Position numbers and translations under genes: made by a program
Source: Firmicutes bacterium UBA2203
Lineage (GTDB): Bacteria > Bacillota > Desulfotomaculia > Desulfotomaculales > Nap2-2B
Length of the DNA: 64,000 bases
Direction: 5' to 3'
Assembly (NCBI GenBank): GCA_002327235.1
Contig: DCUX01000008.1
Span: 62,845-126,844 of the forward strand
Shown: in pieces, positions 7,377-55,184 of the stretch
Layout of the letters: each line of letters starts with the position of its first letter
Numbering within the stretch: position 1 is the first letter of the stretch
Notes under the pieces: model-generated
What the model saw: the letters and a program-made list of their open reading frames with translations, nothing else
Told to the model about the DNA's origin: nothing
Database searches by the model: none

Positions 7377-7384
7377 CCATAAAT

Positions 7385-14155: not shown

Positions 14156-14294
14156 ATTCATTAAGGTGAATGCCGGTGTTTTCATTACCGGCCCGGGGGT
14201 GAGCCTGTTTGCGTTCGGTACGCACGGGCAGGTGCAGGCAGATTAGCACGACAGATAGACGAACACGCGCAATGGCAGAAGGAAGGTTTTGCTT

Positions 14295-16238: not shown

Positions 16239-16252
16239 GCAGGTGAAAAGGA

Positions 16253-19200: not shown

Positions 19201-19280
19201 ACTTTGAGAAAATCAGCAATAACAGCGTCAAGTACGGCGTGGTTGAAAATTATGAGAGGTTATTGGAGATTGTGAGTTGA
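16253..19280 (+). pseudogene. res: Type III restriction enzyme Res subunit, frameshifted and without a canonical start
   Basis: Helicase motifs [10 protein letters not shown] and IIDEPQS, plus a C-terminal PD-(D/E)xK (NPDW...IAETKG). The two track ORFs (16304-17377, 17283-19280) join if one G is removed from GGGGG at 17363-17367. The N-terminus [15 protein letters not shown] begins at CTG 16253. Confidence 0.8.
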
Positions 19281-39979: not shown

Positions 39980-40008
39980 TTGACAGTCGAAATAAAGCAT
40001 AATAAAAT
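39980..40008 (+). promoter_or_regulatory. Candidate sigma-A promoter upstream of the agr-like genes
   Basis: TTGACA, 17 nt, TAAAAT. The -35 overlaps AGTCGAA, one mismatch from a Spo0A box (TGTCGAA). Confidence 0.4.
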
Positions 40009-40101: not shown

Positions 40102-40575
40102 GTGACTGAAAAAACTTGGGCCAGCTTTATTTTATCCTTATTGTTACAAGATTTTCCTGAAAGCCTAGTAATAACAATGTTTGTCTTTAGTTTTTTAAAC
40201 CGGCGCCTGCGGGATAAGAAAGTTCTGTACGCGGCCCTGTTACAAACCATTACTAATTTAGTCCGCTTACTACCAATTGCTTTTGGGGTCCACTCGGTAA
40301 TTTTAATTATTACCTTAGCCTTTTATACCCGGCTGTTTACCAAGGCGCCGCTAAGTAAAATTTTTTTGGCCGTTTTAATTAGTTTTGCCCTTATTGCTTT
40401 AGCAGAATTAGCTTATACTAAACCATTTTTGTCCCTAACGGGTTTATCATACGAAAAAGCCTTTACTAGTCCTTTTTTAAGGGCCGCCTTTGCCTTACCT
40501 TACGAAATAATTTTAATGGGCATAGCTTTAGGGAAGAACTGTTACAACCATAAAAAAGGCTGTCTTATTAATTAA
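40102..40575 (+). CDS. Hypothetical polytopic membrane protein immediately upstream of agrB
   Basis: 157 aa, 4-5 predicted TM helices. GTG start with poor SD (start uncertain). No family recognised. Confidence 0.45.
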   Translation: MTEKTWASFILSLLLQDFPESLVITMFVFSFLNRRLRDKKVLYAALLQTITNLVRLLPIAFGVHSVILIITLAFYTRLFTKAPLSKIFLAVLISFALIALAELAYTKPFLSLTGLSYEKAFTSPFLRAAFALPYEIILMGIALGKNCYNHKKGCLIN

Positions 40576-40600
40576 CTTTTTAACTAAAGGAAGGGTTAAA

Positions 40601-41254
40601 TTGCTTAAATTTAATTTTAATAAAAGTACGGCGGCTTATTTAAAAACAAAATTAAATTTAACGCCGGACGAGGAAGAGGTGGCCCGGTACGGACTGCAAG
40701 TTATTGTTTATACGTTTACCAGCTTTATAACCATTTGTTTGATGGGCTGGCTTCTGGGCTGCTTTTGGACCACTTTAGCGGTTTGTATAACGGGCGGTTT
40801 CCTGCGTCTTTTTACCGGGGGGGCGCACAGCAATTCTCCTTTAACCTGTACCTTGCTGGGCATGGTCATGGTCCCCTTGTTAGGAAAAATAGCCGCCCTT
40901 ACCGCTCCTTTTTTTACTCCCCAAAGCCTGTCTTTAATAGTTGCCCCGGGTCTTATCCTGTCTTTCATTATTATTTGGCGCCTGGCTCCGGTAGATTCAC
41001 CGGCTAAACCAATTACCTTACTGGAGCAGCGCAAAAAACTACGTCTTTTAGCTATCGCGGCGGTTCTTTTACTCACCTCAGGGCAGGCCTTGCTTTTAAT
41101 CAAAGGACAGGCCCTGACGGTAGTTTTAGCCTTAAGTTTGGGTCTGTGGTGGCAAGCCTTCACTCTAACCCAAGCCGGGCATCGGTTTGCCACCTTTACG
41201 GATAAATTTAAATTAAGAAAGGAGGGAAGAAAAGATGAAGCGTCTGTACTATAA
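40601..41254 (+). CDS. agrB: AgrB-family accessory gene regulator B (AgrD-processing membrane peptidase)
   Basis: 217 aa. N-terminal ...EEVARYGLQVI... and RLFTGGAHSNSPLTCTL (AgrB GGxH...C catalytic context), polytopic. Confidence 0.85.
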   Translation: MLKFNFNKSTAAYLKTKLNLTPDEEEVARYGLQVIVYTFTSFITICLMGWLLGCFWTTLAVCITGGFLRLFTGGAHSNSPLTCTLLGMVMVPLLGKIAALTAPFFTPQSLSLIVAPGLILSFIIIWRLAPVDSPAKPITLLEQRKKLRLLAIAAVLLLTSGQALLLIKGQALTVVLALSLGLWWQAFTLTQAGHRFATFTDKFKLRKEGRKDEASVL

Positions 41255-41366
41255 GCTTTTACCCGTTCTTTTTAGCGGTCTGGTGGTTATTGCCTGTGGC
41301 AGTATAAAGCCGGCTTGTGCGGTATGGTGGTACCAGCCTGAGGTGCCCAAAGCCTTAAGGAAATAA
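41235..41366 (+). CDS. agrD: AgrD-like autoinducing peptide precursor (43 aa; not in the ORF track)
   Basis: MKRLYYKLLPVLFSGLVVIACGSIKPACAVWWYQPEVPKALRK. It has an amphipathic leader, a Cys-X4 core (CAVWW) and the conserved acidic/proline tail (QPEVPKAL). GGAGGG SD lies 8 nt upstream. Overlaps the agrB 3' end. Confidence 0.75.
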   Translation: MKRLYYKLLPVLFSGLVVIACGSIKPACAVWWYQPEVPKALRK

Positions 41367-41380
41367 TTGTTAGGAAAATT

Positions 41381-41567
41381 GTAACTACTCAGGCACAAAG
41401 GGGCAAAGGCACATAGGCACAAAGTTTAAAGGAATACAATCGGAATACAGGACACAACCTGTCAAAATACCGCTTTGTTAACATCTTATAGGAACTTAAG
41501 CAACTCATTATCTCCAGATTCTCTTGCCCTTGGTGTTGTGTGTCTTTGTGCCTAGCTGAGTAGTTAC
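41381..41567 (+). mobile_element. MITE-like repeat, copy 2 (187 bp)
   Basis: GTAACTACTCAGGCACAAAGGGGCAAAGGCACATAGGCACAAAG ... CTTTGTGCCTAGCTGAGTAGTTAC. Begins 15 nt after the agrD stop. Confidence 0.8.
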
Positions 41568-41601
41568 GGAAAAATTAACTTGGTCAACGGGAGAATTAAA
41601 G

Positions 41602-43320
41602 ATGCACGGCTGGGAAGAAAAAAGAGCCCGCGAAATAAAAGAATATATTCTAAACAGTCAGGTCATTAGTCTTTTAATTTTTGCAATGATTATCTTTAGC
41701 TTTTATAACTTAAAACTAGGAGAAAATATAACAAATTTTTCAAAAGGAAGTATTGCTCTTTTTGTCCTTTGTATTGTGGTTATTGTTTACGTTACCCGCC
41801 AAATTCTCCCTAAAATTACCTTACTTAATCAAGCAAAAATAGACGAAATATTGCTTATCGGCCTTATTTTTCCTCTGACCTTTGCCTTTCTTTATTTTAG
41901 TAAGGATTTTTTTGGGGCTAAGGTGCTGATAGTCGTGCCGGTAATGATTACCGCAACAGCTTTTGGTAGTTACTGGGGTACTGGAGGGGCTGTTATGGCC
42001 AGTGCCCTTTTATTTTTTTTGGATTATTTAATTTTCCACCGCTTGCCCCCCGATGTTTTCCAAACTAACCTAATTGTAAGCAGTGTAACCATCCTCTCGG
42101 CCTGGCTTATTGGCGGACTCATGGGAGTAGAAAGAAAAACCCAGCAAGAATTGGTTAAAATGGCCGACTATGATTACTTAACCGGTTTGTACAACCACCG
42201 CTACCTGCAGGAAAAGCTGGCCTCCTTCTTGCCTGAAACAAGCCCGGTCGCTAAAAATAACCCCTCTTCTGCCACGCCAAAGAAGGCCGCCCCCGGGAGC
42301 GGTAAGCTAACCCTGGTTTTATTCGATATTAACCAGTTTAAGTATTACAACACCCTTTGGGGCTATCAAAAAGGTGATGAATTTTTAGCCGCTATGGGCA
42401 AGTTATTGCTGGATGAGGTTAAAAACCCTGCTTACGTTGCCCGGTACGGGGGCGACGAGTTTATCCTGGTTTTACCAGAAACGGATAAGCAGGCCGCTTT
42501 GCCCTTAGCCCATGATTTAATAGAAAAAATGACCACCGCGGTCACCTCTTGCTTACCGGAAGAAGAAAGGGCAAAATGTTTAAAGCCCCTTACCATATCC
42601 GTGGGGATGGCCGGTTACCCGGTAGACGGAAAAGCAGTTTTACCTTTAATCAGAGCCGCCGAAGATGACTTATTTAGAATAAAGTACAGTCTGGATAAAG
42701 CCTACCTTTATAAATCGGTCTTAAGTGAAATCAGCGCCCTAAAAATAAAAGACGCTTATCCTGCCCTACAGGCTTTTGTAGCCCTGATTAACGCCCGGGA
42801 CCGGTATACTTTTGGGCACTCGGAAAGGGTGATGTCTTACGCCGTAGCCCTGGGAGAAAAACTGGCCCTTTCCGAAGAAGAAATAGATATCTTGCGTTAC
42901 GGAGCCTACCTGCACGATATAGGTAAAATTGAAATTGAAGCCTCCGTTTTAAATAAAGAAGGAGCATTAGATAAAGCCGAATGGGAAACAATGAAAAAAC
43001 ATCCCGTTTGGGGCAATGAGATTGTTCAAATGATGGTTGCCTTAAATGAAATAGGGCCGGTTATCCGTTCCCACCACGAAAACTACGACGGTTCGGGCTA
43101 CCCTGACGGCCTGAAAGAAGAAAATATTCCTTTTTTGGCCCGTATTCTACGCCTGGCCGACAGTTTTGACGCCATGATCACCGACCGACCTTACCGGAAA
43201 GCTTTGGAATTTTCTGAAGCTTGTTTGGAATTAAAAAGGCACGCCGGCACTTTTTACGACCCCCGCCTGGTAAAACCTTTCCTGGTTGCGGTTAGGGGGG
43301 TTTACAAAAAAACTTCGTAA
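41602..43320 (+). CDS. Polytopic membrane protein with GGDEF and HD-GYP domains
   Basis: 572 aa. About 6 TM helices, then ARYGGDEF (GGDEF), then HSERV...LHDIGKI...HHENYDGSGYPDGL (HD-GYP). Confidence 0.9.
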   Translation: MHGWEEKRAREIKEYILNSQVISLLIFAMIIFSFYNLKLGENITNFSKGSIALFVLCIVVIVYVTRQILPKITLLNQAKIDEILLIGLIFPLTFAFLYFSKDFFGAKVLIVVPVMITATAFGSYWGTGGAVMASALLFFLDYLIFHRLPPDVFQTNLIVSSVTILSAWLIGGLMGVERKTQQELVKMADYDYLTGLYNHRYLQEKLASFLPETSPVAKNNPSSATPKKAAPGSGKLTLVLFDINQFKYYNTLWGYQKGDEFLAAMGKLLLDEVKNPAYVARYGGDEFILVLPETDKQAALPLAHDLIEKMTTAVTSCLPEEERAKCLKPLTISVGMAGYPVDGKAVLPLIRAAEDDLFRIKYSLDKAYLYKSVLSEISALKIKDAYPALQAFVALINARDRYTFGHSERVMSYAVALGEKLALSEEEIDILRYGAYLHDIGKIEIEASVLNKEGALDKAEWETMKKHPVWGNEIVQMMVALNEIGPVIRSHHENYDGSGYPDGLKEENIPFLARILRLADSFDAMITDRPYRKALEFSEACLELKRHAGTFYDPRLVKPFLVAVRGVYKKTS

Positions 43321-43429
43321 AAATTTCGTATTGTCAATCGGGACGATTGACCTACAACAAAATTTCTTAATCCCGGCTTGTAAACTAAATTTTTTATTAA
43401 ATTTTCGGATTAAAAATTGGGGGGAAGCT

Positions 43430-44116
43430 ATGCCAGAAATTAACTTCATGGTTTTTTGCCCTAACCAAATGGTCCGTCAAGCATTGGGAAATTTATTTAG
43501 TCAGAATGATACATTTAACATCCTTATGGAAACCGCTGTTTTTGAAGAACTATTAGCCGTGGGAAAAAACAATCAGCCGGAGATTTTACTTTGGGCTAAC
43601 TCTTATAAAGAAAAGGCAATCGGAAACATGGCCAGTTTTAAAAAAAACTGTCCCTTAACCTCCATAATTTACCTGGCTGATAATACTGATAATGAGGAGT
43701 TGGCCAAACTGCCTGAAATCTTAAAGGCCGGAGCGGACGGATGTCTTTCGCTGAGAATGCTCCCCCGGGACTTAATAAAAACTATGGAGATAATTATCCT
43801 GCAAAAGTATATCTGCTTATCAGCCTTCCTTAAATCTCAGTTGCTCAATATCCCGTTAAATATATACGTAAATTATGAAAACGAAGAAAAAACAAAAAAC
43901 CTTCCTGAAGAAAAAGAAAAGTTAACTCCCCGGGAAAAAGAAATTCTACATCTTTTGGCTCAAAACTGTTCCAACCCGGAAATTGCGGCCCGGCTGTTTG
44001 TCAGTGAAGCAACGGTAAAAACCCACGTCAGCAGAATTTTAGCCAAATTAAAGGCAAAAAACCGCGCCCAGGCCGTGGCAGCCGCTTTAAACAAAGGAAT
44101 TATAGAGAAACTATGA
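43430..44116 (+). CDS. LuxR/GerE-type HTH regulator with degenerate receiver-like N-domain
   Basis: C-terminal LTPREKEILHLLAQNCSNPEIAARLFVSEATVKTHVSRIL. The N-domain has a REC-like layout but lacks the acidic pocket (FMVFCPNQ) and the phospho-Asp (PEILLWANS). Confidence 0.8.
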   Translation: MPEINFMVFCPNQMVRQALGNLFSQNDTFNILMETAVFEELLAVGKNNQPEILLWANSYKEKAIGNMASFKKNCPLTSIIYLADNTDNEELAKLPEILKAGADGCLSLRMLPRDLIKTMEIIILQKYICLSAFLKSQLLNIPLNIYVNYENEEKTKNLPEEKEKLTPREKEILHLLAQNCSNPEIAARLFVSEATVKTHVSRILAKLKAKNRAQAVAAALNKGIIEKL

Positions 44117-44117
44117 G

Positions 44118-44259
44118 GAGCAAGGGCACAGAGGCACAGAGGCACAGAGGCACAGAGGGAAATGAAACGTATAGAGATATGCCGCCTGTCCGCCTGTCCG
44201 CCTGTCTGTCAAAAACTTTGTGCCTTTGTGCCTTTGCCCCTTTGTGCCTGAGTATTTAC
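44118..44259. mobile_element. MITE-like repeat, copy 3, with internal micro-repeats
   Basis: GGCACAGAG x4 (44125-44160) and CGCCTGTC x3, then CTTTGTGCCTTTGTGCCTTTGCCCCTTTGTGCCTGAGTATTTAC. Starts 2 nt after the regulator stop. It generates the spurious ORF 44113-44316. Confidence 0.75.
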
Positions 44260-44515
44260 TATAATATTAATGGCCATATAAAATTCATACTAAAGTATGA
44301 TTGCAATAAATGCTAGGTTATGCTAAAGTTTTGCTAAATTTAACTTTTTAACCAAGGTTTCTGTTTCGAAAAAGGCAATCTGCAAGAAAATAAAAAGCGG
44401 AGCGCAAAGCAAAGGACCCTTAGGGGAAGTATGCTTGGGTAAGCCTGGCTGCCGAAGAACAGAAAAATTTTTTCTGTTGCTTCGGCTTAATTTTTTAAAA
44501 AAGGAGCGGAGGAAG

Positions 44516-45184
44516 ATGGCGGAGGACTTCGTAGCTTTTTGGCATGAAGAGGCCAACAAAATGCTGGTGGGAAACATACTACTATCTTCCGATAGGGGCA
44601 AAAATAAAGCCGTATATGATTTTGCCCGGGGTGAAAATTTTTCCTCAAAGCTAAAGAAATTTAAAATTAAGGCAATTATTTACCCTATAAAAGAGCCGGT
44701 TAATTTAGATTTTTTAAAACAGCTAAAAGAAACCCATTCCAAGGCCCTATTAATTGGCCTGATTGACCAGAATTATCCCCTTGACCATAACGCTACAAAC
44801 CTCTTCAGCCAATTTGATTGCCTCCTGCCTTCCACCATTTTACCCAATCAATTAACCAAAATAGTTGCTTTAATCCTAAAAGGTAATCTATGTATCCCAA
44901 GGTTCTTACTAAAAAGCGCGCAAAAAGCCTCAAAGGAAGGACAGGCTTTAAAAAAACCGGGACCGGAAAGCAAAAATGATAAAAATAGTTTTTCTTTAAC
45001 CACCCGGGAAGCTGAAATCTTTCAATTGGTTAGTAAGGGTTATTCCAATAATGAAATTGCCCAAGAACTGTTTTTAAGTCTTTCTACCGTAAAATCCCAC
45101 ATCTACCGCATTTTTCGTAAATCATCCTTTACCAATCGTGTGCAAACGATCATTTATCAGTACCAAAAAGGAGGTTATCTTTAA
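44516..45184 (+). CDS. Second LuxR/GerE-type HTH regulator with degenerate receiver-like N-domain
   Basis: C-terminal LTTREAEIFQLVSKGYSNNEIAQELFLSLSTVKSHIYRIF. No DD pocket or phospho-Asp recognisable. ATG 44516 follows AAGGAGCGGAGG. Confidence 0.8.
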   Translation: MAEDFVAFWHEEANKMLVGNILLSSDRGKNKAVYDFARGENFSSKLKKFKIKAIIYPIKEPVNLDFLKQLKETHSKALLIGLIDQNYPLDHNATNLFSQFDCLLPSTILPNQLTKIVALILKGNLCIPRFLLKSAQKASKEGQALKKPGPESKNDKNSFSLTTREAEIFQLVSKGYSNNEIAQELFLSLSTVKSHIYRIFRKSSFTNRVQTIIYQYQKGGYL

Positions 45185-45229
45185 AATATTTAGGTAAATA
45201 GGCTAAATTTAGAGAAAAAGGTGAGTTAT

Positions 45230-45643
45230 ATGCAGCGTATAAGACTAATGTTAATAAATTCTCCTGCTTTAAAATCTATTTTTACTAATTATAATATTTT
45301 TGAAATTGTTACGGCCGTAGAAGCAAATGATTTAAATCTTGCTCAGGATGAAGCCCGGCGTTTACAGCCCGACGCTATTATTTATAGGGCCGGGAACAAA
45401 GAAAAAATACCCCTGGAACTGCTCAGTAAAATAAAAGAGGTCTGCCCTTTATCCCTAATGATTATTTTTGCTACTTCAGAAACTCCTGAATGGGTGGCGG
45501 CGGCCCTTAAAGCGGGGGCGGACAGCTACCTTTTAGATGAAAACATGCTGCCGGCGGAAATAGCCGAAGCGGTAGAACTCATCTGCCGGGCTAAAGTTTG
45601 CTTTTTCCCGGCCTCGGTCAAAGAATTATTTAAACAAATTTAA
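45230..45643 (+). CDS. Stand-alone receiver-like domain protein (degenerate)
   Basis: 137 aa. REC-like beta/alpha pattern (..LQPDAIIYRAG.., ..MIIFATSE.., ..ALKAGADSYLL) without the N-terminal acidic pair. Confidence 0.5.
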   Translation: MQRIRLMLINSPALKSIFTNYNIFEIVTAVEANDLNLAQDEARRLQPDAIIYRAGNKEKIPLELLSKIKEVCPLSLMIIFATSETPEWVAAALKAGADSYLLDENMLPAEIAEAVELICRAKVCFFPASVKELFKQI

Positions 45644-45685
45644 AAACATTTGTCATTTTTAAAAAAGAAAGGGGGATTTAAAGGA

Positions 45686-46690
45686 ATGAGAGGAAAAGGC
45701 TTTGTTTTTATGCTTTTAAGGTTATTAATTTTAGCCGCCGCGGCCTTTGGCCTGGCCGGCTGGTCCTACGCCATGGATATTAACTGCAATGTTCAGAATA
45801 CAGATGTTGTCTGGGAGCTTAGGGTAATTCCTGACCTTGAGCTGGTTAATTATTCTTATATGGGCAAAGATGCAGGAAATGACTGGACCTGTGACCCCGG
45901 TCTTGAAAATATCCGCCAGATAGGTGAAGACAAAGGTTCTACTACCGGCGAGTTTAAAGATGAAAACGGCGATAGTAAGCTGGATTTATTAACCGTAAAG
46001 GTTATTAACATTTATCCCTGCTACTATAACGAAGTGAGTATGAAAGTATACAACGGGGGAAGTGAACCAATTACCATGCCTCAACCGGTATTGCACTGGC
46101 TGGGTCAGGAAATTCCCCTGGAAGATGGAATGGTGACTACGGTTTATGACCCGGAAGGAAAGGCGGTAATGGAGCTTTGTTGGTTAAACAATACCGGTAA
46201 GGTGCTTTACCCCGGCAAAAAGTTTGAGGAAGTTTTTGAGTTTCACTTTATCGCCCCGCCGGCAACACCCCCTGAAATTACCGGCCTTACCCCCGGTTAC
46301 TGGAAAAACTGGCGCAACCACTATACGGCCGAGCAATTTAATGCCCTTTTAAAGTCAACCATTGCTCCAGATATAGCTACGGCAGATAAAATCTTTAGTC
46401 ATTACAGTGCTGCCCCGGGTAAAGAAATAACCATCCTCAAGGCTCACCTGTTAGCCGCCCAGCTAACCCTGAACCTGACCAAAATGCCTGAACTGCCTAA
46501 CCCTGACGGGGCCTGTCTGACTGAAAGCAGCAAGGTAGAATGGCAAGGAGGGGTAATAACCGTTGGCGAGGCCGTAAAGAGAGCGCTGGATATTTTAGCC
46601 AATCCTGCGGCCTATACCCGGGAGCAGATTTTGCAGGTAAAGGACCTGTTGGATATGATAAACAACCTAAAAATTCCTACTAAAGGATGA
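45686..46690 (+). CDS. Secreted two-domain protein: TasA-like/GNDWTCD jelly-roll domain plus helical C-domain
   Basis: Signal peptide ending AFGLAGWSYA (SipW-cognate-like). Paralogous to 50730-51398 over YMGKDAGNDWTCD...DENGDSKLDL...YPCYYNE...ELCWLNN...FEEVFEFH. Confidence 0.6.
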   Translation: MRGKGFVFMLLRLLILAAAAFGLAGWSYAMDINCNVQNTDVVWELRVIPDLELVNYSYMGKDAGNDWTCDPGLENIRQIGEDKGSTTGEFKDENGDSKLDLLTVKVINIYPCYYNEVSMKVYNGGSEPITMPQPVLHWLGQEIPLEDGMVTTVYDPEGKAVMELCWLNNTGKVLYPGKKFEEVFEFHFIAPPATPPEITGLTPGYWKNWRNHYTAEQFNALLKSTIAPDIATADKIFSHYSAAPGKEITILKAHLLAAQLTLNLTKMPELPNPDGACLTESSKVEWQGGVITVGEAVKRALDILANPAAYTREQILQVKDLLDMINNLKIPTKG

Positions 46691-46918
46691 TTATGATTTA
46701 GATTTTTCATACCAATGACTGATAGGAAAACATTTTTATTTTTTAGAAAATCTAAGGGAAGAAGTGGCAAATTTTATTAGGAGGTGAAAAAAGTTCTAAG
46801 AAACAAAAAATGTTTCTAAAAGGTGGTGATGATTAAACAGGGATTTATCAAAAGAAATCCCCTTCGCGCATTATAAGTGTGGTTATTATTACCATAAAAT
46901 CTCAAAGGAGGAGAAAAA

Positions 46919-48901
46919 ATGACCAAAAAATTTGGCAGTTTGTTTCTTTGTTTAATGCTCATCATTTCAGCCACAATAATGATTATGCCTTCCCCGGCGG
47001 CTAACGCCAATTGCACCGGCCCAAATTGCCGGACTTATACCCTGGACGCTGATTTTGACGAAGGAGTACTTAACGGCGTAGAACATGAAACTGTCCATGA
47101 CCAACTGCAGTTGGCTAAAAAGCCATTTGCCTTGCCTTTTATCTGGGTGCCCAATTCAAACGAGGGGACAATCTCTAAAGTTTCCACGGAACCACCCTAT
47201 AATGAATTGGGACGCTACCGGGTTACCCCTCCGGGTTTACCCGCCAATGGCAGCCCTTCCCGCACAACAGTTGACCAGCAGGGCAATTGTTGGGTAGGTA
47301 ACAGGCAGGCCGGAACAGTGGTCAAGGTGGGTCTTTTGGAAGCCGGAAACTGGATAGACAGAAACGGCAACGGTGTTTGCGACACATCCCGGGACATTAA
47401 CAATGATGGAAATATTACCGGCGGTGAACTTTTACCCTGGGGACAGGATGAGTGCGTTCTTTATGAAGTGGTCTTAATTGAAGGCCATCAAGGTACTTAT
47501 GTTCCTGGCACATACCCCGGGCCGTACGATACAGATTACTGGGGTACATCACCAAGGGGACTGGCCGTTGACCAAAATAACAACGTCTGGGCAGGAACCT
47601 GGTCATCCCATAAGTTTTACCATATCAACAGCGCTACAGGACAGATTATCAATGCTGATACCATGGATGTTGCCCCTCATAGTTCTTACGGGGTGGTAAT
47701 GGATAAGTACGGCATGCTCTGGTCGGCCCAATTAGGCACAGAAATTCTTAGAATTAACCCGGCAAACCCGGCGGATAAAATAACGATCCCTCTTAACCAC
47801 ACATACGGAATTGGCCTTGATTATCAGGACCACTTGTTTGTTGGGGGAAGCAACAAACTTACCAAAATTAACATTACCACCGGTACAGTACTATGGACAA
47901 AAGGGGCAAGTACTTCACAGGGTGTTTGCTGCACCAGCGATAATGATGTTTGGGTTGATGCGGGAGATAATTGGGTATACCGGTATGATAATGAGGGTAA
48001 CAATAAAGCACAATTTAATGTGGGCAACAACCCGACGGGAGTGGCCGTTGATGCCGCAGGCAAAGTCTGGGCCTGTAATGTCGGGGATGAATATATTACC
48101 CGGATAAACCCGGCTGACAATACAATAATGGCTCAAAAACAAATAATCGGCGGCTACCATTACAGTTACAGCGACATGACCGGCATGGTTTCAGGGTCAA
48201 TCACGGTTAAAAAAGGGACCTGGGAGGTCGTCTATGACAGCGGGGTTAATGATACTCCATGGGGCACAATTTGTTGGAACAGCTCTGAACCCCCCGGGAC
48301 ATCCATCACCGTTCAGGCCATGAGTTCAAATGACGGCGTTAACTATTCACCGGCCGAAAATGCAACCAACGGCATTCCTTTAAGCACCACGCCAAACGGG
48401 CGGTATTTAAAAGCGATTGTTACTTTTACCATAACCAGTGGCGACATTTCCCCCATTCTCTATGATTTAACCATCTGTTCAAAAGCACCGCCAAGCGGCC
48501 GCTGGGAGATTTATAATTACAAGCAAAAGGATACGGGAAATGACTGGACCTGTGATGAAAACTTTGAAAACATTGTCCAGTTGCCTACAAACACCGCCGA
48601 CACGACAATTACCCTGGAAGACACTAATGGCGACGGCAAAAACGACAAGGCCAATATTACCGTGAAAAACGGCTTTCCTACGTATTATAACTCGATTGTC
48701 CTGGATGTAAAAAACATTGGGACCCTTCCCATAAAACTGGCGAACGTAAAAATCATTGCTCCTGATCAAATCCAGTACATGATGCTGGAAAGCCCCAGCA
48801 GCATCATTAAACCAGGCAAGAGAAGAGCCATCGGCATAGACTTCAGGGTTTGGGACGGTGCCCCGCCGCAGGGGGATTACACCATTACCGTTTCTTTGTA
48901 A
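46919..48901 (+). CDS. Secreted beta-propeller protein fused to a C-terminal GNDWTCD domain
   Basis: 660 aa. Sec signal (PAANA). Repeated G.(A/V).D....(V/L)W blades (GLAVDQNNNVWAG, GVVMDKYGMLWSA, GVAVDAAGKVWAC). The last ~140 aa are a close paralogue of 51664-52185. Confidence 0.7.
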   Translation: MTKKFGSLFLCLMLIISATIMIMPSPAANANCTGPNCRTYTLDADFDEGVLNGVEHETVHDQLQLAKKPFALPFIWVPNSNEGTISKVSTEPPYNELGRYRVTPPGLPANGSPSRTTVDQQGNCWVGNRQAGTVVKVGLLEAGNWIDRNGNGVCDTSRDINNDGNITGGELLPWGQDECVLYEVVLIEGHQGTYVPGTYPGPYDTDYWGTSPRGLAVDQNNNVWAGTWSSHKFYHINSATGQIINADTMDVAPHSSYGVVMDKYGMLWSAQLGTEILRINPANPADKITIPLNHTYGIGLDYQDHLFVGGSNKLTKINITTGTVLWTKGASTSQGVCCTSDNDVWVDAGDNWVYRYDNEGNNKAQFNVGNNPTGVAVDAAGKVWACNVGDEYITRINPADNTIMAQKQIIGGYHYSYSDMTGMVSGSITVKKGTWEVVYDSGVNDTPWGTICWNSSEPPGTSITVQAMSSNDGVNYSPAENATNGIPLSTTPNGRYLKAIVTFTITSGDISPILYDLTICSKAPPSGRWEIYNYKQKDTGNDWTCDENFENIVQLPTNTADTTITLEDTNGDGKNDKANITVKNGFPTYYNSIVLDVKNIGTLPIKLANVKIIAPDQIQYMMLESPSSIIKPGKRRAIGIDFRVWDGAPPQGDYTITVSL

Positions 48902-48914
48902 AGCCCGGCGGGTA

Positions 48915-48948
48915 AAAAACAGGGGGTTTTTTAAGCTCCCTGTTTTTT
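48915..48948 (+). terminator. Intrinsic terminator after the propeller gene
   Basis: AAAAACAGGG / CCCTGTTTTT 10-bp stem running into a T tract. Confidence 0.7.
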
Positions 48949-49282
48949 ACCAAATTTCCTACTAAAGTATGATTTTTAAAAGCCATTTTTCATACCAACG
49001 GCGGATAGATAAAAGTTTTTACTTGTTTTAAATTTAAGTTAAGGCCAATCAAACTAAAAAATGTAAAAAGGAGCCCTGATGATTTAAAGGAGGTGGGAGA
49101 AAAGCCCGGGGCAAAGAGGCAGGCCGGCAAGATTAGAAAGATAAGGCCAGATTGTCTTTGGGGCGTAAAAAGGGGAGAAGTTTTAGCGGAGCGGAGGAAA
49201 GGGTACTATTAAAATGAACGGGTTGGAAAAAAATCTAAAAAGTAAAAAATTAAAAAATTAAAAAGAAAGGGGATTAAACCTA

Positions 49283-49930
49283 ATGAAGAGGAAAACAGTA
49301 GTTATCTGTCTGATTGCCATGTTTGCCTTAGCGGCTATGGGCTTTGGCTTTGCCAAATGGTCAGACAGCGTGTCAATTGCCGCCACAGTGGAAACAGGTA
49401 AAGTATGCGTAGGTATTTTAGATGCAGGTGTTCTTGATCCAGGAGCCGACCCGCAACAAACTCCCGGACAAAACCCGGAAGGTAAAGATGTAGCCAAAAC
49501 TACCAGCACAAATATTGACAATAAATGCGAAAATGCTGGTGTGCAGTACTTCGCAAAAATTGAAGAGAAGATTGAAAATGCTTATCCCTGGTACAAAACC
49601 GGCAGCACAATTAAAATGGCTAACTGCGGCACCATCCCGGTAAAAATTGAAAAAATTGAGGCTGTATGGGATGACCCCGATGGAATAGCTGACTTTTTTA
49701 ACGTTGCAGAGTGGACACTTACAGATAATGGAGTAGTTGTTGGAACAGGCACTGGCCTTGATTCTCTTATGACTGCGTTAATTAAATACCAGCTTCATCC
49801 GGACCACGTTTTAACCCTTGATATTACAGGCTATTTTGCCGAAGAAGTCGGCACTGATATTATGCCAGAAGGCGCGAGCGCTACTGCAACAGTCACCGTT
49901 ACCGCCAGCCAGTGGAACGAAGTACCGTAA
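49283..49930 (+). CDS. TasA/camelysin-family protein with SipW-cognate-type signal peptide
   Basis: 215 aa. LAAMGFGFAKWSDSVS (compare TasA ..GGGTWAAFND), ENAYPWY..ANCGTIPVKI, and C-terminal VTASQWNEV (compare TasA FEATQWNG). Confidence 0.75.
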   Translation: MKRKTVVICLIAMFALAAMGFGFAKWSDSVSIAATVETGKVCVGILDAGVLDPGADPQQTPGQNPEGKDVAKTTSTNIDNKCENAGVQYFAKIEEKIENAYPWYKTGSTIKMANCGTIPVKIEKIEAVWDDPDGIADFFNVAEWTLTDNGVVVGTGTGLDSLMTALIKYQLHPDHVLTLDITGYFAEEVGTDIMPEGASATATVTVTASQWNEVP

Positions 49931-49950
49931 AAATCTTCTGCGGACAAAAT

Positions 49951-49982
49951 GTTAGTTGGGGCCTTTAAAGGCCCCAACTAAC
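49951..49982 (+). terminator. 13-bp perfect GC-rich hairpin without T tract after the first TasA-like gene
   Basis: GTTAGTTGGGGCC-TTTAAA-GGCCCCAACTAAC. Confidence 0.5.
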
Positions 49983-50051
49983 AAGCTTAAAAAAGTGGTT
50001 ATTAAACTAAAAAGAGTAAGCACGTTTTAAAGGGAAAAAGGAAGGTAAACC

Positions 50052-50702
50052 ATGAAGAAAATTTTGCTTGTATTCTTTAGCGGAATATTTGCCTTAGCGG
50101 CCATGGGCTTTGGTTTTGCCGGGTGGTCTGATGCCGTAAGCATGGAAAAGCATTTGGAAAGCGGCACGCTGGCCGTCGGCTTGAGGGGCCTGGAAGTGAA
50201 TGATTACGGCCCTGACCCCCGCCATCAGTGGTACCAGCCGGCCGAAGACATGCCGGCCGATATGGGAAGCATTTTCAATGTGGAGGGGCCGTATCTTTTT
50301 GACCTGGGGGGTACAGGTTACGCTGAAGAGGTAAGCATAAATATTTTTAATGCCTATCCCGGCTATGCCCCGGCCAGCACATTGGAAATAGCCAACGGGG
50401 GTACGGTGCCGGCCAAAATAGAAAGCCTTTCCATAAGCGATGAAAACAACCCGGCGGTAAATATCCAGCCGGCCGGCTGGGTCCTTACCCTACCTGAGGG
50501 AATGCCGCTTTCCGGTCAGGACTTGAGTTCCTTGCAGGAAGCAATAAAGGGTACGGTAATCGACCCGGGGCAAAAAATGCGCCTGGAATGGCAATTTAAT
50601 ATCTTCGGCGCCGGAATGTCCGGCTTTTATACGAGCAAAATTAAAGTTAACTATAGTGTCTGGAATGAGGTTAATTCCTGGCGTAAGTTAAGTTATGATT
50701 AA
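50052..50702 (+). CDS. TasA/camelysin-family protein with SipW-cognate-type signal peptide
   Basis: 216 aa. LAAMGFGFAGWSDAVS, NAYPGY..ANGGTVPAKI, C-terminal NYSVWNEV. Confidence 0.75.
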   Translation: MKKILLVFFSGIFALAAMGFGFAGWSDAVSMEKHLESGTLAVGLRGLEVNDYGPDPRHQWYQPAEDMPADMGSIFNVEGPYLFDLGGTGYAEEVSINIFNAYPGYAPASTLEIANGGTVPAKIESLSISDENNPAVNIQPAGWVLTLPEGMPLSGQDLSSLQEAIKGTVIDPGQKMRLEWQFNIFGAGMSGFYTSKIKVNYSVWNEVNSWRKLSYD

Positions 50703-50729
50703 AAATTTTAAGGAAAGGAGGGCTCTTAA

Positions 50730-51398
50730 TTGAAAAGAACCGCAGTGGTATGTGTAATTGCTTTGCTGGCTCTGGCTATCATGGGTTTTGGCTTTGCCAA
50801 ATGGTCGGACAACGTGTCCATAAGTGCGGCGGCCCAAAGCGGTAAGTTGAGCTGGGGATTTGTGCCTGGTTCAGATATGGGTAAGGATGCCGGTCCCGAC
50901 TGGACCTGCGACACCTGCCTGGAAAATGTACGGCCGTCCCCGGAAGGCAAGGACGTGGGTTCCACCACAACAGGGCTTAGCGACACAAACGGGGACGGCG
51001 TGCTTGATTTGTTCACCGTGGATGTTAAAAATGCTTATCCCTGCTACTACAACGAATTAAGCGCCAAGGTGCAAAACTTTGGCACCATTCCGGTGATCAT
51101 TCAAATAGCAAAATTAACCTGGATGGGCCACACTTTAAACCTGGAAGACGGTACGGTCTATTGGCTGGGCAAAGACGGTCAGGTTATTGAACAGCCAGAA
51201 GACCCGCCAGACCTTCACGTAGGAGATAACTGGGTAATGGAGTTTTGTTGGATGAACAATGCTGGACATCAGCAGCATCCCGGCCAAAAGTTTGAAGAAT
51301 CATTTGAATTTCATGTCCTCCAGCCGGCGGAACAAAGTACTACTTATACATTTAGCATTGGCGTAGAAGCCATCCAGTGGAATGAAAGTACAATTTAA
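50730..51398 (+). CDS. TasA/camelysin-family protein with GNDWTCD-type insertion and SipW-cognate-type signal peptide
   Basis: 222 aa, TTG start after AAGGAAAGGAGG. LAIMGFGFAKWSDNVS, DAGPDWTCDTC, DTNGDGVLDL, NAYPCYYNE, C-terminal VEAIQWNES. Confidence 0.75.
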   Translation: MKRTAVVCVIALLALAIMGFGFAKWSDNVSISAAAQSGKLSWGFVPGSDMGKDAGPDWTCDTCLENVRPSPEGKDVGSTTTGLSDTNGDGVLDLFTVDVKNAYPCYYNELSAKVQNFGTIPVIIQIAKLTWMGHTLNLEDGTVYWLGKDGQVIEQPEDPPDLHVGDNWVMEFCWMNNAGHQQHPGQKFEESFEFHVLQPAEQSTTYTFSIGVEAIQWNESTI

Positions 51399-51436
51399 AT
51401 TTAAAGAAAAAAGCTAAAGATAGATTTATTATGCAG

Positions 51437-51463
51437 GGCAGGTGAAAAACCTGCCTTTTTTTT
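51437..51463 (+). terminator. Intrinsic terminator
   Basis: GGCAGGT-GAAAA-ACCTGCC followed by T8. Confidence 0.8.
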
Positions 51464-51663
51464 GTAACTACATAAATATAAAAAATTAGCTTGACACCTA
51501 AAAAAATAATTGATATGTTTATGGAAAAATAGCCCTAAATATGTTTAAATTTATCCTGAAAGAGGTAGTAAAGAGGACAATTCCCAAAGGAAAAAACAGA
51601 AAGTATAGGAGGTGGGCTGTTTTTTAATAAAAATTAATATGGAAAAGGGGTTTTATATTTAAA

Positions 51664-52185
51664 ATGAAACCAAAAATATTATTTATTCTGGTCATGGTTG
51701 CCTTGCTGGCCTTAGGCCTAACCGGCGCAGCCTGGGCGGCCGCGGCCAATGGTCAAAACTGGATGATCTGCTCCAACATGCAGCAGGATACCGGAAACGA
51801 CTGGGTCTGTGATGAAAACTTTGAAAACATCCAGCAATTAGCAACGAATACCGCTCAAACAATTATTAGTTATCAGGATAACAACGGAGATGGAAAAAAC
51901 GATACGGCAATAGTCACGGTTGAAAAAGGATTTCCTTCCTATTATAATTCTTTAAGTCTGACGGTAAAAAATATCGGCAATATCCCGATAAGTATGAGCG
52001 AGGTAGTAATTGAAAACCTTAATCCGGAAAATCTTGAAATCAGAATACTGGAAAGTCCGCAGGGCACTATTAATCCGGGCAAAAGAAAGTCCATCGGGAT
52101 TGAATTCCGGGTTTCTGGTGCACCGGGAGAAGCAAACGGCTCATATAGCTTTATGGTTTATTTAAATCAAATTATGCCGGGCTGA
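51664..52185 (+). CDS. Small secreted GNDWVCD-domain protein (paralogue of the propeller protein C-domain)
   Basis: 173 aa. Signal peptide ..GLTGAAWAAAA. QQDTGNDWVCDENFENIQQL...DNNGDGKNDT...FPSYYNS...KNIGNIPI. Confidence 0.65.
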   Translation: MKPKILFILVMVALLALGLTGAAWAAAANGQNWMICSNMQQDTGNDWVCDENFENIQQLATNTAQTIISYQDNNGDGKNDTAIVTVEKGFPSYYNSLSLTVKNIGNIPISMSEVVIENLNPENLEIRILESPQGTINPGKRKSIGIEFRVSGAPGEANGSYSFMVYLNQIMPG

Positions 52186-52211
52186 AAATACTTAAAAAAA
52201 CCAAGTGAAGT

Positions 52212-52270
52212 AAGAAGAGGACTTAAAGGGGGGTTTTAATTTTTCCGGTTAAGTCCTCTTCTTTTAGTTT
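52212..52270 (+). terminator. Long-loop hairpin plus T tract after 51664-52185
   Basis: AAGAAGAGGACTT (52212-52224) pairs with AAGTCCTCTTCTT (52251-52263), followed by TTAGTTTTT. Confidence 0.5.
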
Positions 52271-52362
52271 TTAAAAAGCAGGTCTTTAAGTTTTTTTGTT
52301 TAAATGTTATATTTTGTTTGCAAGGAAATTTTTTTGCCCTCAGGCCAATTAAGAGGTGAAGA

Positions 52363-53535
52363 ATGCTTCGACTGAAGATACCCCGGGACTGGCTTTTGGT
52401 TTTATTTCTGGTAATAATTGTTTGTCTATTTTTAAATCTAGCTTTACCCTGTTTTTTAAGCGGATTTTGGGGCACTTACGTGGTGCAGCCTGTTATCTGG
52501 GGATTACTGGTTTTTTTTATTTTGCGCCTGCCCAGGTATAAAGGGGCAGGGAAGCTGCGTCTGCGGAGCCTGTTAATTAAGCTTGCCGCCGGAATAGCCA
52601 TTTTTCAAATTTACCTTACCCTTATTGCCGGTTTTTTTGAAAAGTTTGGCCGAAGCCCAAATTCCTTTACTCCCAAAGGGATAGTAATTAATCTGGTCTT
52701 TGTGGCCACAAGTTTAGCTGGGATAGAGCTAAGCCGGGCTTGGTTAATTAACCGCCGGGCGCGAAAACCCTCAACCCTCCTACCTGTTTTTATCGCCCTG
52801 CTTTTTACTTATTTTTCCCTGCCGCCGGGCCAGATTCCTAAAATAAGCAGCAGCCTGGAAGTAGTAACTGAGTTTTTAGGGTCAACTTTTTTACCTACTT
52901 TTATGGAAAACTTGCTGGCCTCTTTTCTGGCCTTATGGGGAGGAGCGCTGCCGGCCTTGACTTACCGGGGGATAATCCAGGCTTTTAACTGGTTTTGTCC
53001 TGTTTTGCCCGACTTAAACTGGTTAATGAAGGCCTTTACGGGAATAATTGTACCGGTGGTAGGCCTGGTAATCATCCAGGAAATTTCCCTGGCTAAATCC
53101 CATCTTGCCCGGTACCGGAGACAAACGGGTAAGGGACTAACCGGATGGTTGATTACCAGTATCGGAATGGTAATCATGTTCTGGTTTTTCTTAGGCGTTT
53201 TTCCCGTTCACCCCACCGTAATTTTCACCGGCAGCATGCGGCCGGCCATAGAAGTGGGTGATGTGGTTATTGTGGCCAGGGTAAATCCTAAACTTCTGAA
53301 GGTGGGCGATGTTGTTCAGTTCCGCCTCAAGGAAAAAACTATTCCCACGGTGCACCGGATTATTGATACTCGCCGCGAAGGAAATAAATTACTTTACATT
53401 ACCAAAGGGGACGCCAACAATTATCCGGATACGGAACCGGTTCACCCGGAACAGGTGACAGGCAAGCAAGTTTTTATTATCCCCAAGGCAGGCTGGGCCT
53501 CTATTGCCGTTAAACAGTTGTTATCTAAAGGTTAA
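52363..53535 (+). CDS. SipW-type (ER/archaeal-type) signal peptidase I fused to a ~265-aa polytopic N-terminal domain
   Basis: The C-terminal 120 aa carry TGSMRPAIEVGDVV, TVHRII, ITKGDANNYPD (compare B. subtilis SipW SGSMEP..THRI..TKGDNN). It is preceded by about 8 TM helices of unknown family. Confidence 0.85.
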   Translation: MLRLKIPRDWLLVLFLVIIVCLFLNLALPCFLSGFWGTYVVQPVIWGLLVFFILRLPRYKGAGKLRLRSLLIKLAAGIAIFQIYLTLIAGFFEKFGRSPNSFTPKGIVINLVFVATSLAGIELSRAWLINRRARKPSTLLPVFIALLFTYFSLPPGQIPKISSSLEVVTEFLGSTFLPTFMENLLASFLALWGGALPALTYRGIIQAFNWFCPVLPDLNWLMKAFTGIIVPVVGLVIIQEISLAKSHLARYRRQTGKGLTGWLITSIGMVIMFWFFLGVFPVHPTVIFTGSMRPAIEVGDVVIVARVNPKLLKVGDVVQFRLKEKTIPTVHRIIDTRREGNKLLYITKGDANNYPDTEPVHPEQVTGKQVFIIPKAGWASIAVKQLLSKG

Positions 53536-53652
53536 GTAACTACTCAGGCACAAAGGGGCAAAGGCACAGAGGCACAAAGTTTTTTGCCAGATTTACATAT
53601 CTTTATACGCTTTCATTTCTCTTTGGACCTTCGTGCCTACCTGAATAGTTAC
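53536..53652 (+). mobile_element. MITE-like repeat, copy 4 (117 bp)
   Basis: GTAACTACTCAGGCACAAAGGGGCAAAGGCACAGAGGCACAAAG ... CCTGAATAGTTAC. Begins at the nucleotide after the sipW-like stop codon. Confidence 0.85.
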
Positions 53653-53688
53653 AAGGTTAAATCTAAAATACCAGGAGGGAATGTTTAA

Positions 53689-54747
53689 ATGCAAGTTAAA
53701 AAAAAGCAGCTGGGGAAAAAAATTCGTCAGGCACTGCTAGGAGCCTTATTGGTTTTATTTGTCGCTTCTATCTACACCCTGTACTTTTTTTACCATAAAT
53801 CCACGGTAATAGAAAAGAGCATCCCCGCTTACCGTTACCAACAAAAAGGAGAGCTTGCCTACCTGGTAAAACTTAAACCAAACAACATTTACCCGGAGCC
53901 AATCCTTGGTCCAGGAAAAACTTATTTTACCAAACTAATTGACCAGATTAACCTTTCCTTCAACTACCGGTTTAGCGGGGATAAAGCCGCGTCCTTAAAA
54001 GGGGCATACAATATTGTGGCCACCGTTGAGTCTCCGGAAATGTGGCGTAAGGATTTTGTCCTCGTTCCGCAAACGGGACTTACCACCGAAGGGAAAACAT
54101 TAACCTTTAATAAAAATTTTTCCCTTAACCTGGTTTCCTTTCACGAGTTTTTAAAAATGATTAATGAAGAATCAGGGGTAAGCGCCCGGGAACCAAAATT
54201 AATCATTAAAGCAAATGTTTATCTTAGGGCCGCCTCTAAAGAGGGGCTGGTAAATGAAGGCTTAGCTCCCACTATGATTATTCCCCTGACCTCGGGCGAA
54301 TTTAAAATTGGGGGGGAAAATTCAACTCAAAAAAGCGGTTCTCTTTCTAAAACAGTGGTAGTAACCGACCCGGCCGTAAAAAAGAAAAGAACAGCCGCTT
54401 TAATTCCCGCGCCGATGCTAGGTCTGCTTTTAATATTATTTTTCTTTTTTACCGAAAACAAATTGGGGGAAGTTGACGAAAGAAAAAAGGTTATTGATTT
54501 AATTTGGAGAAAGTACGGGGAGCGCCTGGTGAAAGTCCAGGAAAAGGTTTTACCGACAGAAAAACTAAATATCATTCCCCTTAACTCCCTGGAGGACCTG
54601 GTTAAAGTGGCCGATGAGCTGGGCAAACCGGTTATATACCAGGAAAAGGCCAACCCCGGGGATTTCCCTGTCTTGTATGTCTTTGAAAGTTCAATAGCTT
54701 TTAAGTATCAACCAGGTACGGATAAGGATATTGGTCCAGGTCATTAA
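53689..54747 (+). CDS. Two-TM membrane protein of unknown function, last gene of the TasA/SipW cluster
   Basis: 352 aa. TM1 at residues ~15-35, a ~220-aa extracytoplasmic region, TM2 AALIPAPMLGLLLILFFFF, and a ~95-aa cytoplasmic tail. I suspect but cannot verify DUF5305-type. Confidence 0.5.
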   Translation: MQVKKKQLGKKIRQALLGALLVLFVASIYTLYFFYHKSTVIEKSIPAYRYQQKGELAYLVKLKPNNIYPEPILGPGKTYFTKLIDQINLSFNYRFSGDKAASLKGAYNIVATVESPEMWRKDFVLVPQTGLTTEGKTLTFNKNFSLNLVSFHEFLKMINEESGVSAREPKLIIKANVYLRAASKEGLVNEGLAPTMIIPLTSGEFKIGGENSTQKSGSLSKTVVVTDPAVKKKRTAALIPAPMLGLLLILFFFFTENKLGEVDERKKVIDLIWRKYGERLVKVQEKVLPTEKLNIIPLNSLEDLVKVADELGKPVIYQEKANPGDFPVLYVFESSIAFKYQPGTDKDIGPGH

Positions 54748-55009
54748 CCAGCTCATCTACATTATTGAACGATTTAACTCTTCCGGCCTTTATGTCTTCT
54801 TCCGCTTCTTTCTCCCCTTTTTGCCATTCTTTTGTCCAAAACCAGGCCTGCTCCGCCGGAATAATCTTCATGGGAACAAGAATAACTTTATTATCTTCTA
54901 TCTGCACCTGAAAGATATCCCCATCGCTTAGCGGCAGGTGTTTTTTTAAAAGTCCCAAACTAACAATCCCACGCTTTTGGACCATTATATTACCGATTAT
55001 TTTACCCAT
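54701..55009 (-). CDS. AbrB/MazE/SpoVT-family DNA-binding protein
   Basis: 102 aa from MGKIIGNIMVQKRGIVSLGLLKKHLPLSDGDIFQV (swapped-hairpin barrel signature). GGAGGGA SD. Its 3' end overlaps the convergent upstream gene by 47 nt. Confidence 0.7.
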   Translation of the reverse strand: MGKIIGNIMVQKRGIVSLGLLKKHLPLSDGDIFQVQIEDNKVILVPMKIIPAEQAWFWTKEWQKGEKEAEEDIKAGRVKSFNNVDELVNDLDQYPYPYLVDT

Positions 55010-55184
55010 AGCATATCCCTCCATTCATTATTCCGTATAGCTGTTTTGCAGTTATCAATTATTCTGTTCTGCTGCAATTATAGAATAAAAGTTAGCTTTG
55101 GTCAACAGATGAAATTGAAAGATTTGCCCTTAGTAAATTATAATTTATAATGGATGTGAAGAATAGTTTAAATTTGGGGGAACT

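Follow-up and report, generated by a model that had tools for sequence, protein, structure and literature searches.

Which protein reads an agr-type cyclic peptide when no AgrC kinase is encoded beside it? This question is raised by a 64,000-nucleotide stretch of the genome of Firmicutes bacterium UBA2203 (contig DCUX01000008.1, positions 62,845 to 126,844; hereafter the window), in which agrB and agrD are followed by the gene of a membrane enzyme with a GGDEF and an HD-GYP domain, the domains for synthesis and breakdown of cyclic dimeric guanosine monophosphate (c-di-GMP). Many Clostridia have agrBD without agrCA, and their receptor is an acknowledged open question: a 2025 agr primer lists clostridial variants "lacking agrC and agrA" without naming an alternative receptor (PMC12312760), and according to a 2023 study the receptor for AgrD1 of Clostridium difficile "remains elusive" (PMC10602386). 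The locus in the window offers two concrete candidates, namely f157, a small membrane protein encoded first in the operon, and the domain of six transmembrane helices (6TM domain) that heads the enzyme.

We found that f157, agrB, agrD and the enzyme gene form a cassette that is widespread, with more than 50 species of anaerobic bacteria among its hosts, and that it is expressed in nature. Its conservation strongly supports a functional coupling of agrBD to the c-di-GMP enzyme, which we regard as highly probable. We further propose, with somewhat better than even confidence, that the four genes are a self-contained module in which f157 and the 6TM domain constitute a split receptor that turns the cyclic peptide into c-di-GMP turnover.

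A conserved agr cassette without a kinase

The four genes lie on the + strand behind the spoIIIAA-AH operon, which ends at position 39925. The original prediction for this locus had described a membrane protein, agrB, agrD, a miniature inverted-repeat transposable element (MITE) and a GGDEF/HD-GYP protein in this order, and each of these parts was located in our analysis (Table 1). It had also stated that the window encodes no histidine kinase and no LytTR regulator, and among window open reading frames (ORFs) of at least 150 aa we likewise identified no HATPase or HisKA domain and no LytTR domain. An HPK10-type kinase core (SPOB_a/HisKA-like region plus GHKL ATPase) was absent from f157, from the enzyme and from the same set of ORFs, and no regulator combining REC and LytTR domains, as in AgrA, is present within the window. 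The cassette is a member of the agr family by its AgrB and AgrD, lacks both the AgrC kinase and AgrA, and resembles an agr system with a replaced receiver half.

A word-indexed search returned full-length homologues of the enzyme (~555-580 aa) from Moorellaceae, Thermacetogeniaceae, Pelotomaculum, Desulfotomaculum and others. All seven homologues whose loci were checked, spanning 85% to 38% identity, are preceded by a gene for a ~157-aa protein, agrB and an ORF of 43-45 aa; the flanking genes differ at each of these loci, which share no conserved two-component system. In Pelotomaculum thermopropionicum SI, agrB and agrD are present but uncalled in the annotation. One further homologue (P0092, 42% identical) carries the source label "Klebsiella pneumoniae plasmid", which is probably a mis-assignment or a contaminant because the distribution is otherwise Clostridia-wide.

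A scan with the f157 alignment over one genome per species gave 65 loci, the neighbours of which were classed with profiles built in this analysis. Three loci were uninformative, and 57 of the remaining 62 carry f157-agrB-agrD-enzyme, either complete (51) or consistent with it but cut by a contig end (6). Two loci are decayed (L065, frameshifted; L011, with agrD and a frameshifted enzyme gene but without agrB) and three have a different architecture. The co-occurrence of agrBD with GGDEF/HD-GYP neighbours across genomes, which had been suggested as a check, is thus borne out. Hosts belong to Moorellales, Desulfotomaculales, Syntrophomonadaceae, Thermacetogeniaceae, Lachnospiraceae (Herbinix, Anaerocolumna, Parasporobacterium) and Peptostreptococcaceae, where relatives of C. 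difficile (Terrisporobacter, Romboutsia, Paraclostridium) hold the full cassette, and include one metagenome-assembled genome (MAG) from Fusobacteriota (Ilyobacter). Among the Ilyobacter MAGs the cassette is complete in L070, on a 1.69-Mb contig, and decayed in L065; its presence there implies transfer between phyla. Altogether, more than 55 genomes, representing at least four orders and two phyla, carry the genes in this order and orientation amid unrelated flanks, which is far beyond chance.

The spacing is operon-like, with median gaps of -2 nt between f157 and agrB and 82 nt between agrD and the enzyme gene, and a sequence scan of the window identified no convincing terminator between the four genes. 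The candidate promoter in front of f157 matches 11 of 12 consensus positions, is the top-scoring one of the region and falls between the end of spoIIIAH and the f157 start. The four products have diverged in step with one another, as a jointly inherited module should. Divergence is faster in the membrane-embedded parts (f157, AgrB and the 6TM domain) than in the cytoplasmic domains, and fastest of all in the 6TM domain.

The predicted signal and the enzyme

AgrB has the His76 and Cys83 pair expected of this endopeptidase family, and both residues are invariant in all 55 orthologues. AgrD scores 36.9 bits with TIGR04223 against a cut-off of 19 and has the hydrophobic leader, the Cys/Ser followed by four ring residues and the conserved recognition tail of this family; its sequence includes ...KPACAVWWYQPEVPKALRK, it ends in ...IKPACAVWWYQPEVPKALRK, and it can be read as C28-AVWW-YQPEVPKALRK, where YQPEVPKALRK is the recognition tail. 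An AgrD is present in 54 of the 55 cassettes with the frame KP[AT]-C-x4-[YHF]-Q-P-E-x-P. The four residues that follow the cysteine are hypervariable even among close relatives, being AVWW in the window, SLWF in L006 and SLIL in L010. By analogy with the autoinducing peptide (AIP) of Clostridium perfringens, given as [CLWFT] (PMC12312760), the thiolactone ring of the window peptide is predicted to be [CAVWW]. One Ammonifex MAG (L015) has a second agrB-agrD pair directly upstream of f157 (4888-5654), the AgrD of which ends in ...RPNCWSWLIYEPVAPRALRK, so that two producer pairs stand against one pair of f157 and enzyme.

The enzyme looks active from its motifs. RYGGDEF begins at residue 281, YLHDIGK at 436 and HHENYDGSGYP at 491. 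Across the family, all 55 orthologues preserve the HD and HHExxDGxGYP motifs, and 45 keep GG[DE]EF, which is degenerate in the other 10, suggesting that phosphodiesterase capacity is universal and cyclase capacity usual. An RxxD I-site, an optional feature, is absent five residues upstream of GGDEF, where the window protein has KNPAYVA in a stretch that is variable across the family. The GGDEF domain of the window enzyme also contains a low-complexity insertion (PETSPVAKNNPSSATPKKAAPGSGK) near its start (42226-42300, residues ~209-233), and the profile match is accordingly longer in the protein than in the model.

The 6TM domain is a generic module, which also heads kinases unconnected with agr. 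The AlphaFold2 model contains six helices with a mean confidence (pLDDT) of 73. The window domain has no match in Pfam even at E 10; relatives show sub-threshold matches to 7TM-7TMR_HD and DUF4118, and one (P0139) is above threshold for 6TM_PilS. A fold search of the PDB returned a weak top match to the 6TM adenylyl cyclase Rv1625c (7yzk, E 0.4). With the domain alone as query, a word-indexed search gave three matches and an exhaustive search 27, mostly of the same architecture.

f157 is related to AgrC-type sensors

The original prediction had offered the N-terminal domain of the enzyme as the AgrC-like sensor. Sequence comparison places this kinship elsewhere: f157, not the enzyme N-domain, is the relative of AgrC-type sensors. 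The evidence comes from Carboxydothermus islandicus (L042), where two kinases (458 and 473 aa) have the f157 domain at their N-terminus. In both, positions 10-150 of the f157 profile hidden Markov model match residues ~16-170 (E 1e-20), followed by two hydrophobic helices, SPOB_a and HATPase_c_5. One of these kinase genes is directly upstream of agrB-agrD and the other directly upstream of a gene for a REC-LytTR regulator. The relationship also holds in the reverse direction, as a kinase used as single query against the window ORFs finds f157 (phmmer, E 3e-12). The catalytic part matches the kinase module of Staphylococcus aureus AgrC (6e52, E 7e-10), and the AgrD of the same locus shares the KP-x-[C/S]-x4-YQPE signature. 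In this genuine agr system, arranged as agrC-agrB-agrD / agrC-agrA, f157 thus supplies helices one to five of a seven-helix sensor. Homology to an agr-linked kinase was found for f157 and not for the 6TM domain.

The protein itself has no match among Pfam and NCBIfam profiles, and its 123 homologues (150-186 aa) are all without a name. AlphaFold2 models f157 with five long transmembrane helices (pLDDT 89). Neither the fold search of the PDB, with nothing better than E 2, nor the profile search of the PDB gave a relative, and BLASTP detected no similarity between f157 and the transmembrane domain of the enzyme. Family motifs include LLQDFPES, TNLVRLLPIAFGxH and PxLRAAFxLPYE, and R55-x-LPI-x-FG-x-H64 is kept in at least 52 of the 55 orthologues. 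Because the loop of residues 32-38 and the C-terminus are rich in basic residues, the positive-inside rule would put the N-terminus outside; the family-invariant residues (R55, L57-P58-I59, F61-G62, H64 and P133) would therefore be localised at the extracellular helix ends of the model, as a possible dock for the peptide.

Two loci outside the agr context bear on the role of f157. At a locus of Clostridium paridis (L071) that lacks agrB and agrD, the gene of a 610-aa 6TM-PAS-HisKA-HATPase kinase, whose first 182 residues match the transmembrane profile of the enzyme (E 3e-30), comes after an f157-like gene. In L080, a 954-aa 6TM-PAS-GAF hybrid kinase (transmembrane match E 3e-31) is preceded at a distance of 205 nt by an f157-like gene (E 1e-12), again without agrBD. 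Together with L081, the 6TM domain heads histidine kinases at E 3e-30 to 2e-33. That f157 stays with the 6TM domain when the output is swapped fits a signal-input partner rather than a factor for peptide maturation. The original prediction had suggested that the 157-aa protein could be a co-receptor or an immunity/export factor. Its homology to AgrC-type sensors favours a part in sensing, while a role in export or maturation is the rival reading considered below.

As in staphylococcal agr groups, a hypervariable ring calls for a co-diversifying receptor. In close pairs, the identity of f157 and AgrB drops most when the rings differ, although such pairs are few and non-independent. The f157 proteins of Terrisporobacter are 82% identical when the ring is the same and 63-72% identical with different rings, at similar HD-GYP identity. 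Tandem double f157 genes ahead of agrB occur in L007/L013 (4939-6052), L034 (5330-6465) and L079 (1970-3073).

Transcripts from a relative

RNA data were found for one relative; for the window organism we found DNA metagenomes only. Metatranscriptome assemblies from anaerobic digesters contain 91-98% of the words sampled from the cassette of Syntrophaceticus schinkii. One RNA-derived contig starts within agrB and reaches as far as the enzyme gene's end (3366-5867), a second runs from agrD through the enzyme gene (3756-5912), and a third covers f157-agrB-agrD (2631-3881) at ~9x the depth of the enzyme segment. These contigs, which are assemblies in which DNA carry-over is possible and which come from a relative of the window organism, are consistent with a single transcription unit that is attenuated or processed downstream of agrD. 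At S. schinkii agrD itself (L029, 3741-3871), the assembled depth reaches up to ~4960 against ~135 at f157 and ~240 at the enzyme gene, a pattern suggestive of an internal promoter or of processing into a stable agrD RNA. For Paraclostridium, the search for RNA data gave nothing useful.

A proposed split receptor and its alternatives

In the mechanism that we propose, AgrB would cut AgrD after Trp32 and close the five-residue thiolactone [CAVWW] with an N-terminal tail, and the peptide would be exported. Outside the cell it would be recognised by f157, the equivalent of the first five of seven AgrC-type sensor helices without the kinase, which would relay the signal laterally in the membrane to the 6TM domain. 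The balance of the enzyme would then shift between making c-di-GMP (GGDEF) and degrading it (HD-GYP), so that cell density would be set directly into the c-di-GMP pool without phosphotransfer or a dedicated transcription factor. Read-out would fall to c-di-GMP effectors, for example the class I riboswitches that precede glycosyltransferase and glycoside hydrolase genes in the same genome. The coupling of peptide to c-di-GMP that had been predicted thus keeps its link between agrBD and GGDEF/HD-GYP, on the grounds of conservation, spacing and RNA contigs, but loses its assignment of the sensor. More tentatively, and at slightly less than even confidence, we suggest that a kinase-less split agr receptor exists in many Clostridia and that the pair of f157 and 6TM domain is a modular input unit which is also plugged onto histidine kinases.

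Several observations weigh against this proposal. Homology establishes what AgrB, AgrD, GGDEF and HD-GYP are and that f157 is kin to the AgrC-type sensor region, whereas we infer that f157 binds the peptide, that it contacts the 6TM domain and which way the enzyme switches. Structures of AgrC in the PDB are limited to its cytoplasmic part, which leaves no sensor structure for comparison. The f157 and 6TM profiles showed no similarity to the staphylococcal AgrC sensor, a comparison that is a lead only. In partial Mantel tests of ring identity against f157, AgrB or 6TM divergence, controlling for HD-GYP divergence, no part was significant. The 6TM domain also occurs on kinases without an f157 neighbour (a 673-aa protein in L080; L081). 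In the window, moreover, agrD and the enzyme gene have a repeat element between them, by which their transcription might be uncoupled.

An alternative that we consider unlikely, though the best placed of the rivals, is that of the original prediction: the 6TM domain of the enzyme binds the peptide itself, f157 being an accessory for maturation, export or immunity, such as a leader peptidase in the role that MroQ has in staphylococci. The rapid evolution of the 6TM domain is what a specificity determinant should display, and the invariant polar residues of f157 (E20, R55, H64) could equally be catalytic, leaving a leader-peptidase or export role as a rival to sensing. L043 retains f157-agrB-agrD without the enzyme, which fits a biosynthetic role as well, and the agrBD genes of C. 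perfringens are co-transcribed with two upstream hypothetical ORFs that had to be included in the complementing fragment (PMC2706048). Against these stand the Carboxydothermus fusions, in which f157 makes up most of the sensor region of kinases with AgrC-type cores, and the f157-like genes beside 6TM kinases in L071 and L080, where agrB and agrD are lacking and a maturation factor is hard to explain. The occurrence of the 6TM module on agr-unrelated kinases also speaks against its being the peptide receptor.

A second and still less probable alternative places the receptor elsewhere in the genome: a conventional AgrCA or VirSR system would sense the peptide, and the enzyme would be an output controlled by its amount through co-transcription, or would respond to an unrelated membrane cue. 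Clostridial agrBD can use unlinked receptors, VirSR of C. perfringens, for instance, being its reported AIP receptor (PMC10602386), and the cassette of L078 has a LytTR/His_kinase pair 2.5 kb away. Such a system would nevertheless leave unexplained why a kinase-less homologue of AgrC sensors occupies the first position of at least 57 cassettes and why f157 tracks the 6TM domain across output swaps, and the flanks, different in every genome, contain no conserved two-component system. That the genes are neighbours by chance has a negligible probability, for although a repeat element parts agrD from the enzyme gene in this window alone, the conservation data already contradict it and RNA contigs bridge the genes.

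The repeat element between agrD and the enzyme gene

The element that separates agrD from the enzyme gene is a 193-bp insertion, which is missing in the two closest relatives, L006 (enzyme 85% identical) and L010. It has the features of a MITE-like element: terminal inverted repeats of 12 nt (41381-41392 and 41556-41567), multiple copies and a presence/absence polymorphism. Its end sequence occurs six times in the window against 0.01 expected, giving at least five copies elsewhere in the window. The gap between agrD and the enzyme gene has grown from ~43 nt to 235 nt through this insertion, and the ribosome-binding site of the enzyme gene is preserved. The copies belong to a short repeat family of ~110-195 bp with the common end GTAACTACTCAGGCACAAAGGGGCAAAGGCACAGAGGCACAAAG, located at 33758, 41381, 44240, 53536, 58067 and 63405. 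All copies seen are intergenic, and their translation yields the recurring "LCLCAFAPLCL" pseudo-peptides in ORF lists.

Possible read-out and other features of the window

The original prediction had linked the locus to two c-di-GMP riboswitches and to matrix genes nearby. Two c-di-GMP-I riboswitches do exist; they lie ~32 kb from the cassette, however. The matrix genes that were meant are probably those downstream of the cassette, none of which was identifiable as such. The organism has c-di-GMP effectors tied to polysaccharide metabolism; their link to the cassette is plausible, and nothing specific points to it.

Table 1. Features of the agrBD locus and of c-di-GMP metabolism in the window (positions are those of the 64,000-nucleotide stretch).
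Feature	Position	Strand	Description
Sigma-70-like promoter candidate	39980-40008	+	TTGACA-17-TAAAAT; consensus match alone
f157	40102-40575	+	157 aa, five-helix membrane protein; by homology a stand-alone relative of the AgrC-type kinase sensor region
agrB	40601-41254	+	AgrD-processing membrane endopeptidase; PF04647, E 1e-38
agrD	41235-41366	+	43-aa precursor; TIGR04223, E 3e-9
MITE-like repeat element	41371-41567		Between agrD and the enzyme gene
Enzyme, whole gene	41602-43320	+	572 aa; 6TM-GGDEF-HD-GYP
Enzyme, 6TM N-terminal domain	41602-42165	+	Residues 1-188; proposed partner of f157
Enzyme, GGDEF diguanylate cyclase domain	42163-42684	+	Residues 188-361; PF00990, E 4e-26
Enzyme, HD-GYP c-di-GMP phosphodiesterase domain	42775-43269	+	Residues 392-556; PF13487 (HD_5), E 4e-34
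c-di-GMP-I riboswitch	6006-6097		Upstream of GT2 glycosyltransferase-unknown-SLT operon (6165-8575)
c-di-GMP-I riboswitch	8711-8795		Upstream of GH16 glycoside hydrolase (8950-9579)
MASE9-GAF-GGDEF cyclase	2185-3882	-	Second cyclase in the window

The enzyme gene is followed by a ~12-kb segment (43286-55100) that is missing in the closest relative, L006, where nitroreductase, holin and ThiF genes come directly after the enzyme gene; the LuxR/GerE and secreted-protein genes of the segment are not part of the conserved module. The segment codes for two LuxR/GerE regulators whose receiver-like N-termini are degenerate, a receiver-like protein of 140 aa, an S26 signal peptidase, a DUF5305 protein and unannotated proteins with hydrophobic N-termini (346, 660, 215, 216, 222 and 173 aa), and it may be an island of secreted-fibre or matrix genes. 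VpsT-type binding of c-di-GMP by the LuxR/GerE regulators was considered and rejected, as no W[FLM][TS]R motif was seen in a 276-aa sequence read by eye. Further upstream, a restriction-modification-like block (14289-19280; N6/N4 DNA methylase, ResIII helicase, RE_endonuc) coincides with the G+C maximum of the window (~0.50 at 16-18 kb). The contig belongs to a MAG, and DNA runs that contain the window sequence carry a hydrocarbon metagenome label.

Relation to known systems and implications

The cassette shares with the canonical agrBDCA systems of S. aureus and clostridia the His/Cys pair of AgrB, the Cys-x4 ring and the acidic/proline tail of AgrD, the hypervariability of the ring, and a polytopic sensor encoded in the same operon. 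It differs from them in the absence of a kinase core and of LytTR, in that the sensor-like module is a separate 157-aa protein encoded first in the operon, and in that its output is a c-di-GMP enzyme instead of phosphotransfer to a transcription factor. Like the orphan loci C. difficile agr1, C. botulinum agrB1D1 and agrB2D2, and C. perfringens agrBD, it has no adjacent agrCA, and the last of these resembles it also in its co-transcribed upstream hypothetical ORFs (PMC2706048). Unlike at those orphan loci, two conserved neighbours supply a candidate receptor and a candidate output.

Direct coupling of quorum signals to c-di-GMP turnover is familiar from the fatty-acid signals of the diffusible signal factor (DSF) family, through RpfC/RpfG in Xanthomonas and RpfR in Burkholderia. 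The enzyme domain of RpfG is an HD-GYP domain driven by a phosphorelay, and RpfR is a cytoplasmic protein that is receptor and c-di-GMP enzyme in one. The coupling proposed for the cassette resembles these systems in principle, but theirs involve a fatty-acid signal, Gram-negative hosts and unrelated proteins, whereas the signal of the cassette would be a ribosomal cyclic peptide. PilS offers another parallel, as its 6TM domain senses PilA within the membrane. The 6TM domain of the cassette is likewise the first part of a signalling enzyme, and we propose that it reads an intramembrane partner; the differences are that this partner would be a five-helix protein of AgrC-type sensor lineage, that the output is c-di-GMP and that the window domain lacks a Pfam match.

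The original prediction knew of no described direct coupling of agr to c-di-GMP, and we likewise found none in the searchable literature. Searches for agr together with GGDEF, HD-GYP or c-di-GMP neighbours returned only reviews and a C. difficile agrA transcriptome paper. An agrBD-GGDEF/HD-GYP cassette or a kinase-less AgrC-like protein is undescribed in the searchable full-text literature, which does not cover the 2008 comparison of Firmicutes agr systems (Wuster & Babu).

The cassette occurs in culturable species, including Paraclostridium bifermentans, Terrisporobacter, Romboutsia, Moorella/Neomoorella, P. thermopropionicum and S. schinkii, and the idea is therefore testable. If it is correct, the cassette would be the first case, as far as we found, in which Gram-positive bacteria link a ribosomal cyclic-peptide autoinducer directly to c-di-GMP, and it would define a new receptor architecture, a split AgrC-type sensor. 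Its hosts live as syntrophs and acetogens in digesters and in hydrocarbon-degrading consortia, where density-dependent control of aggregation would be ecologically relevant.

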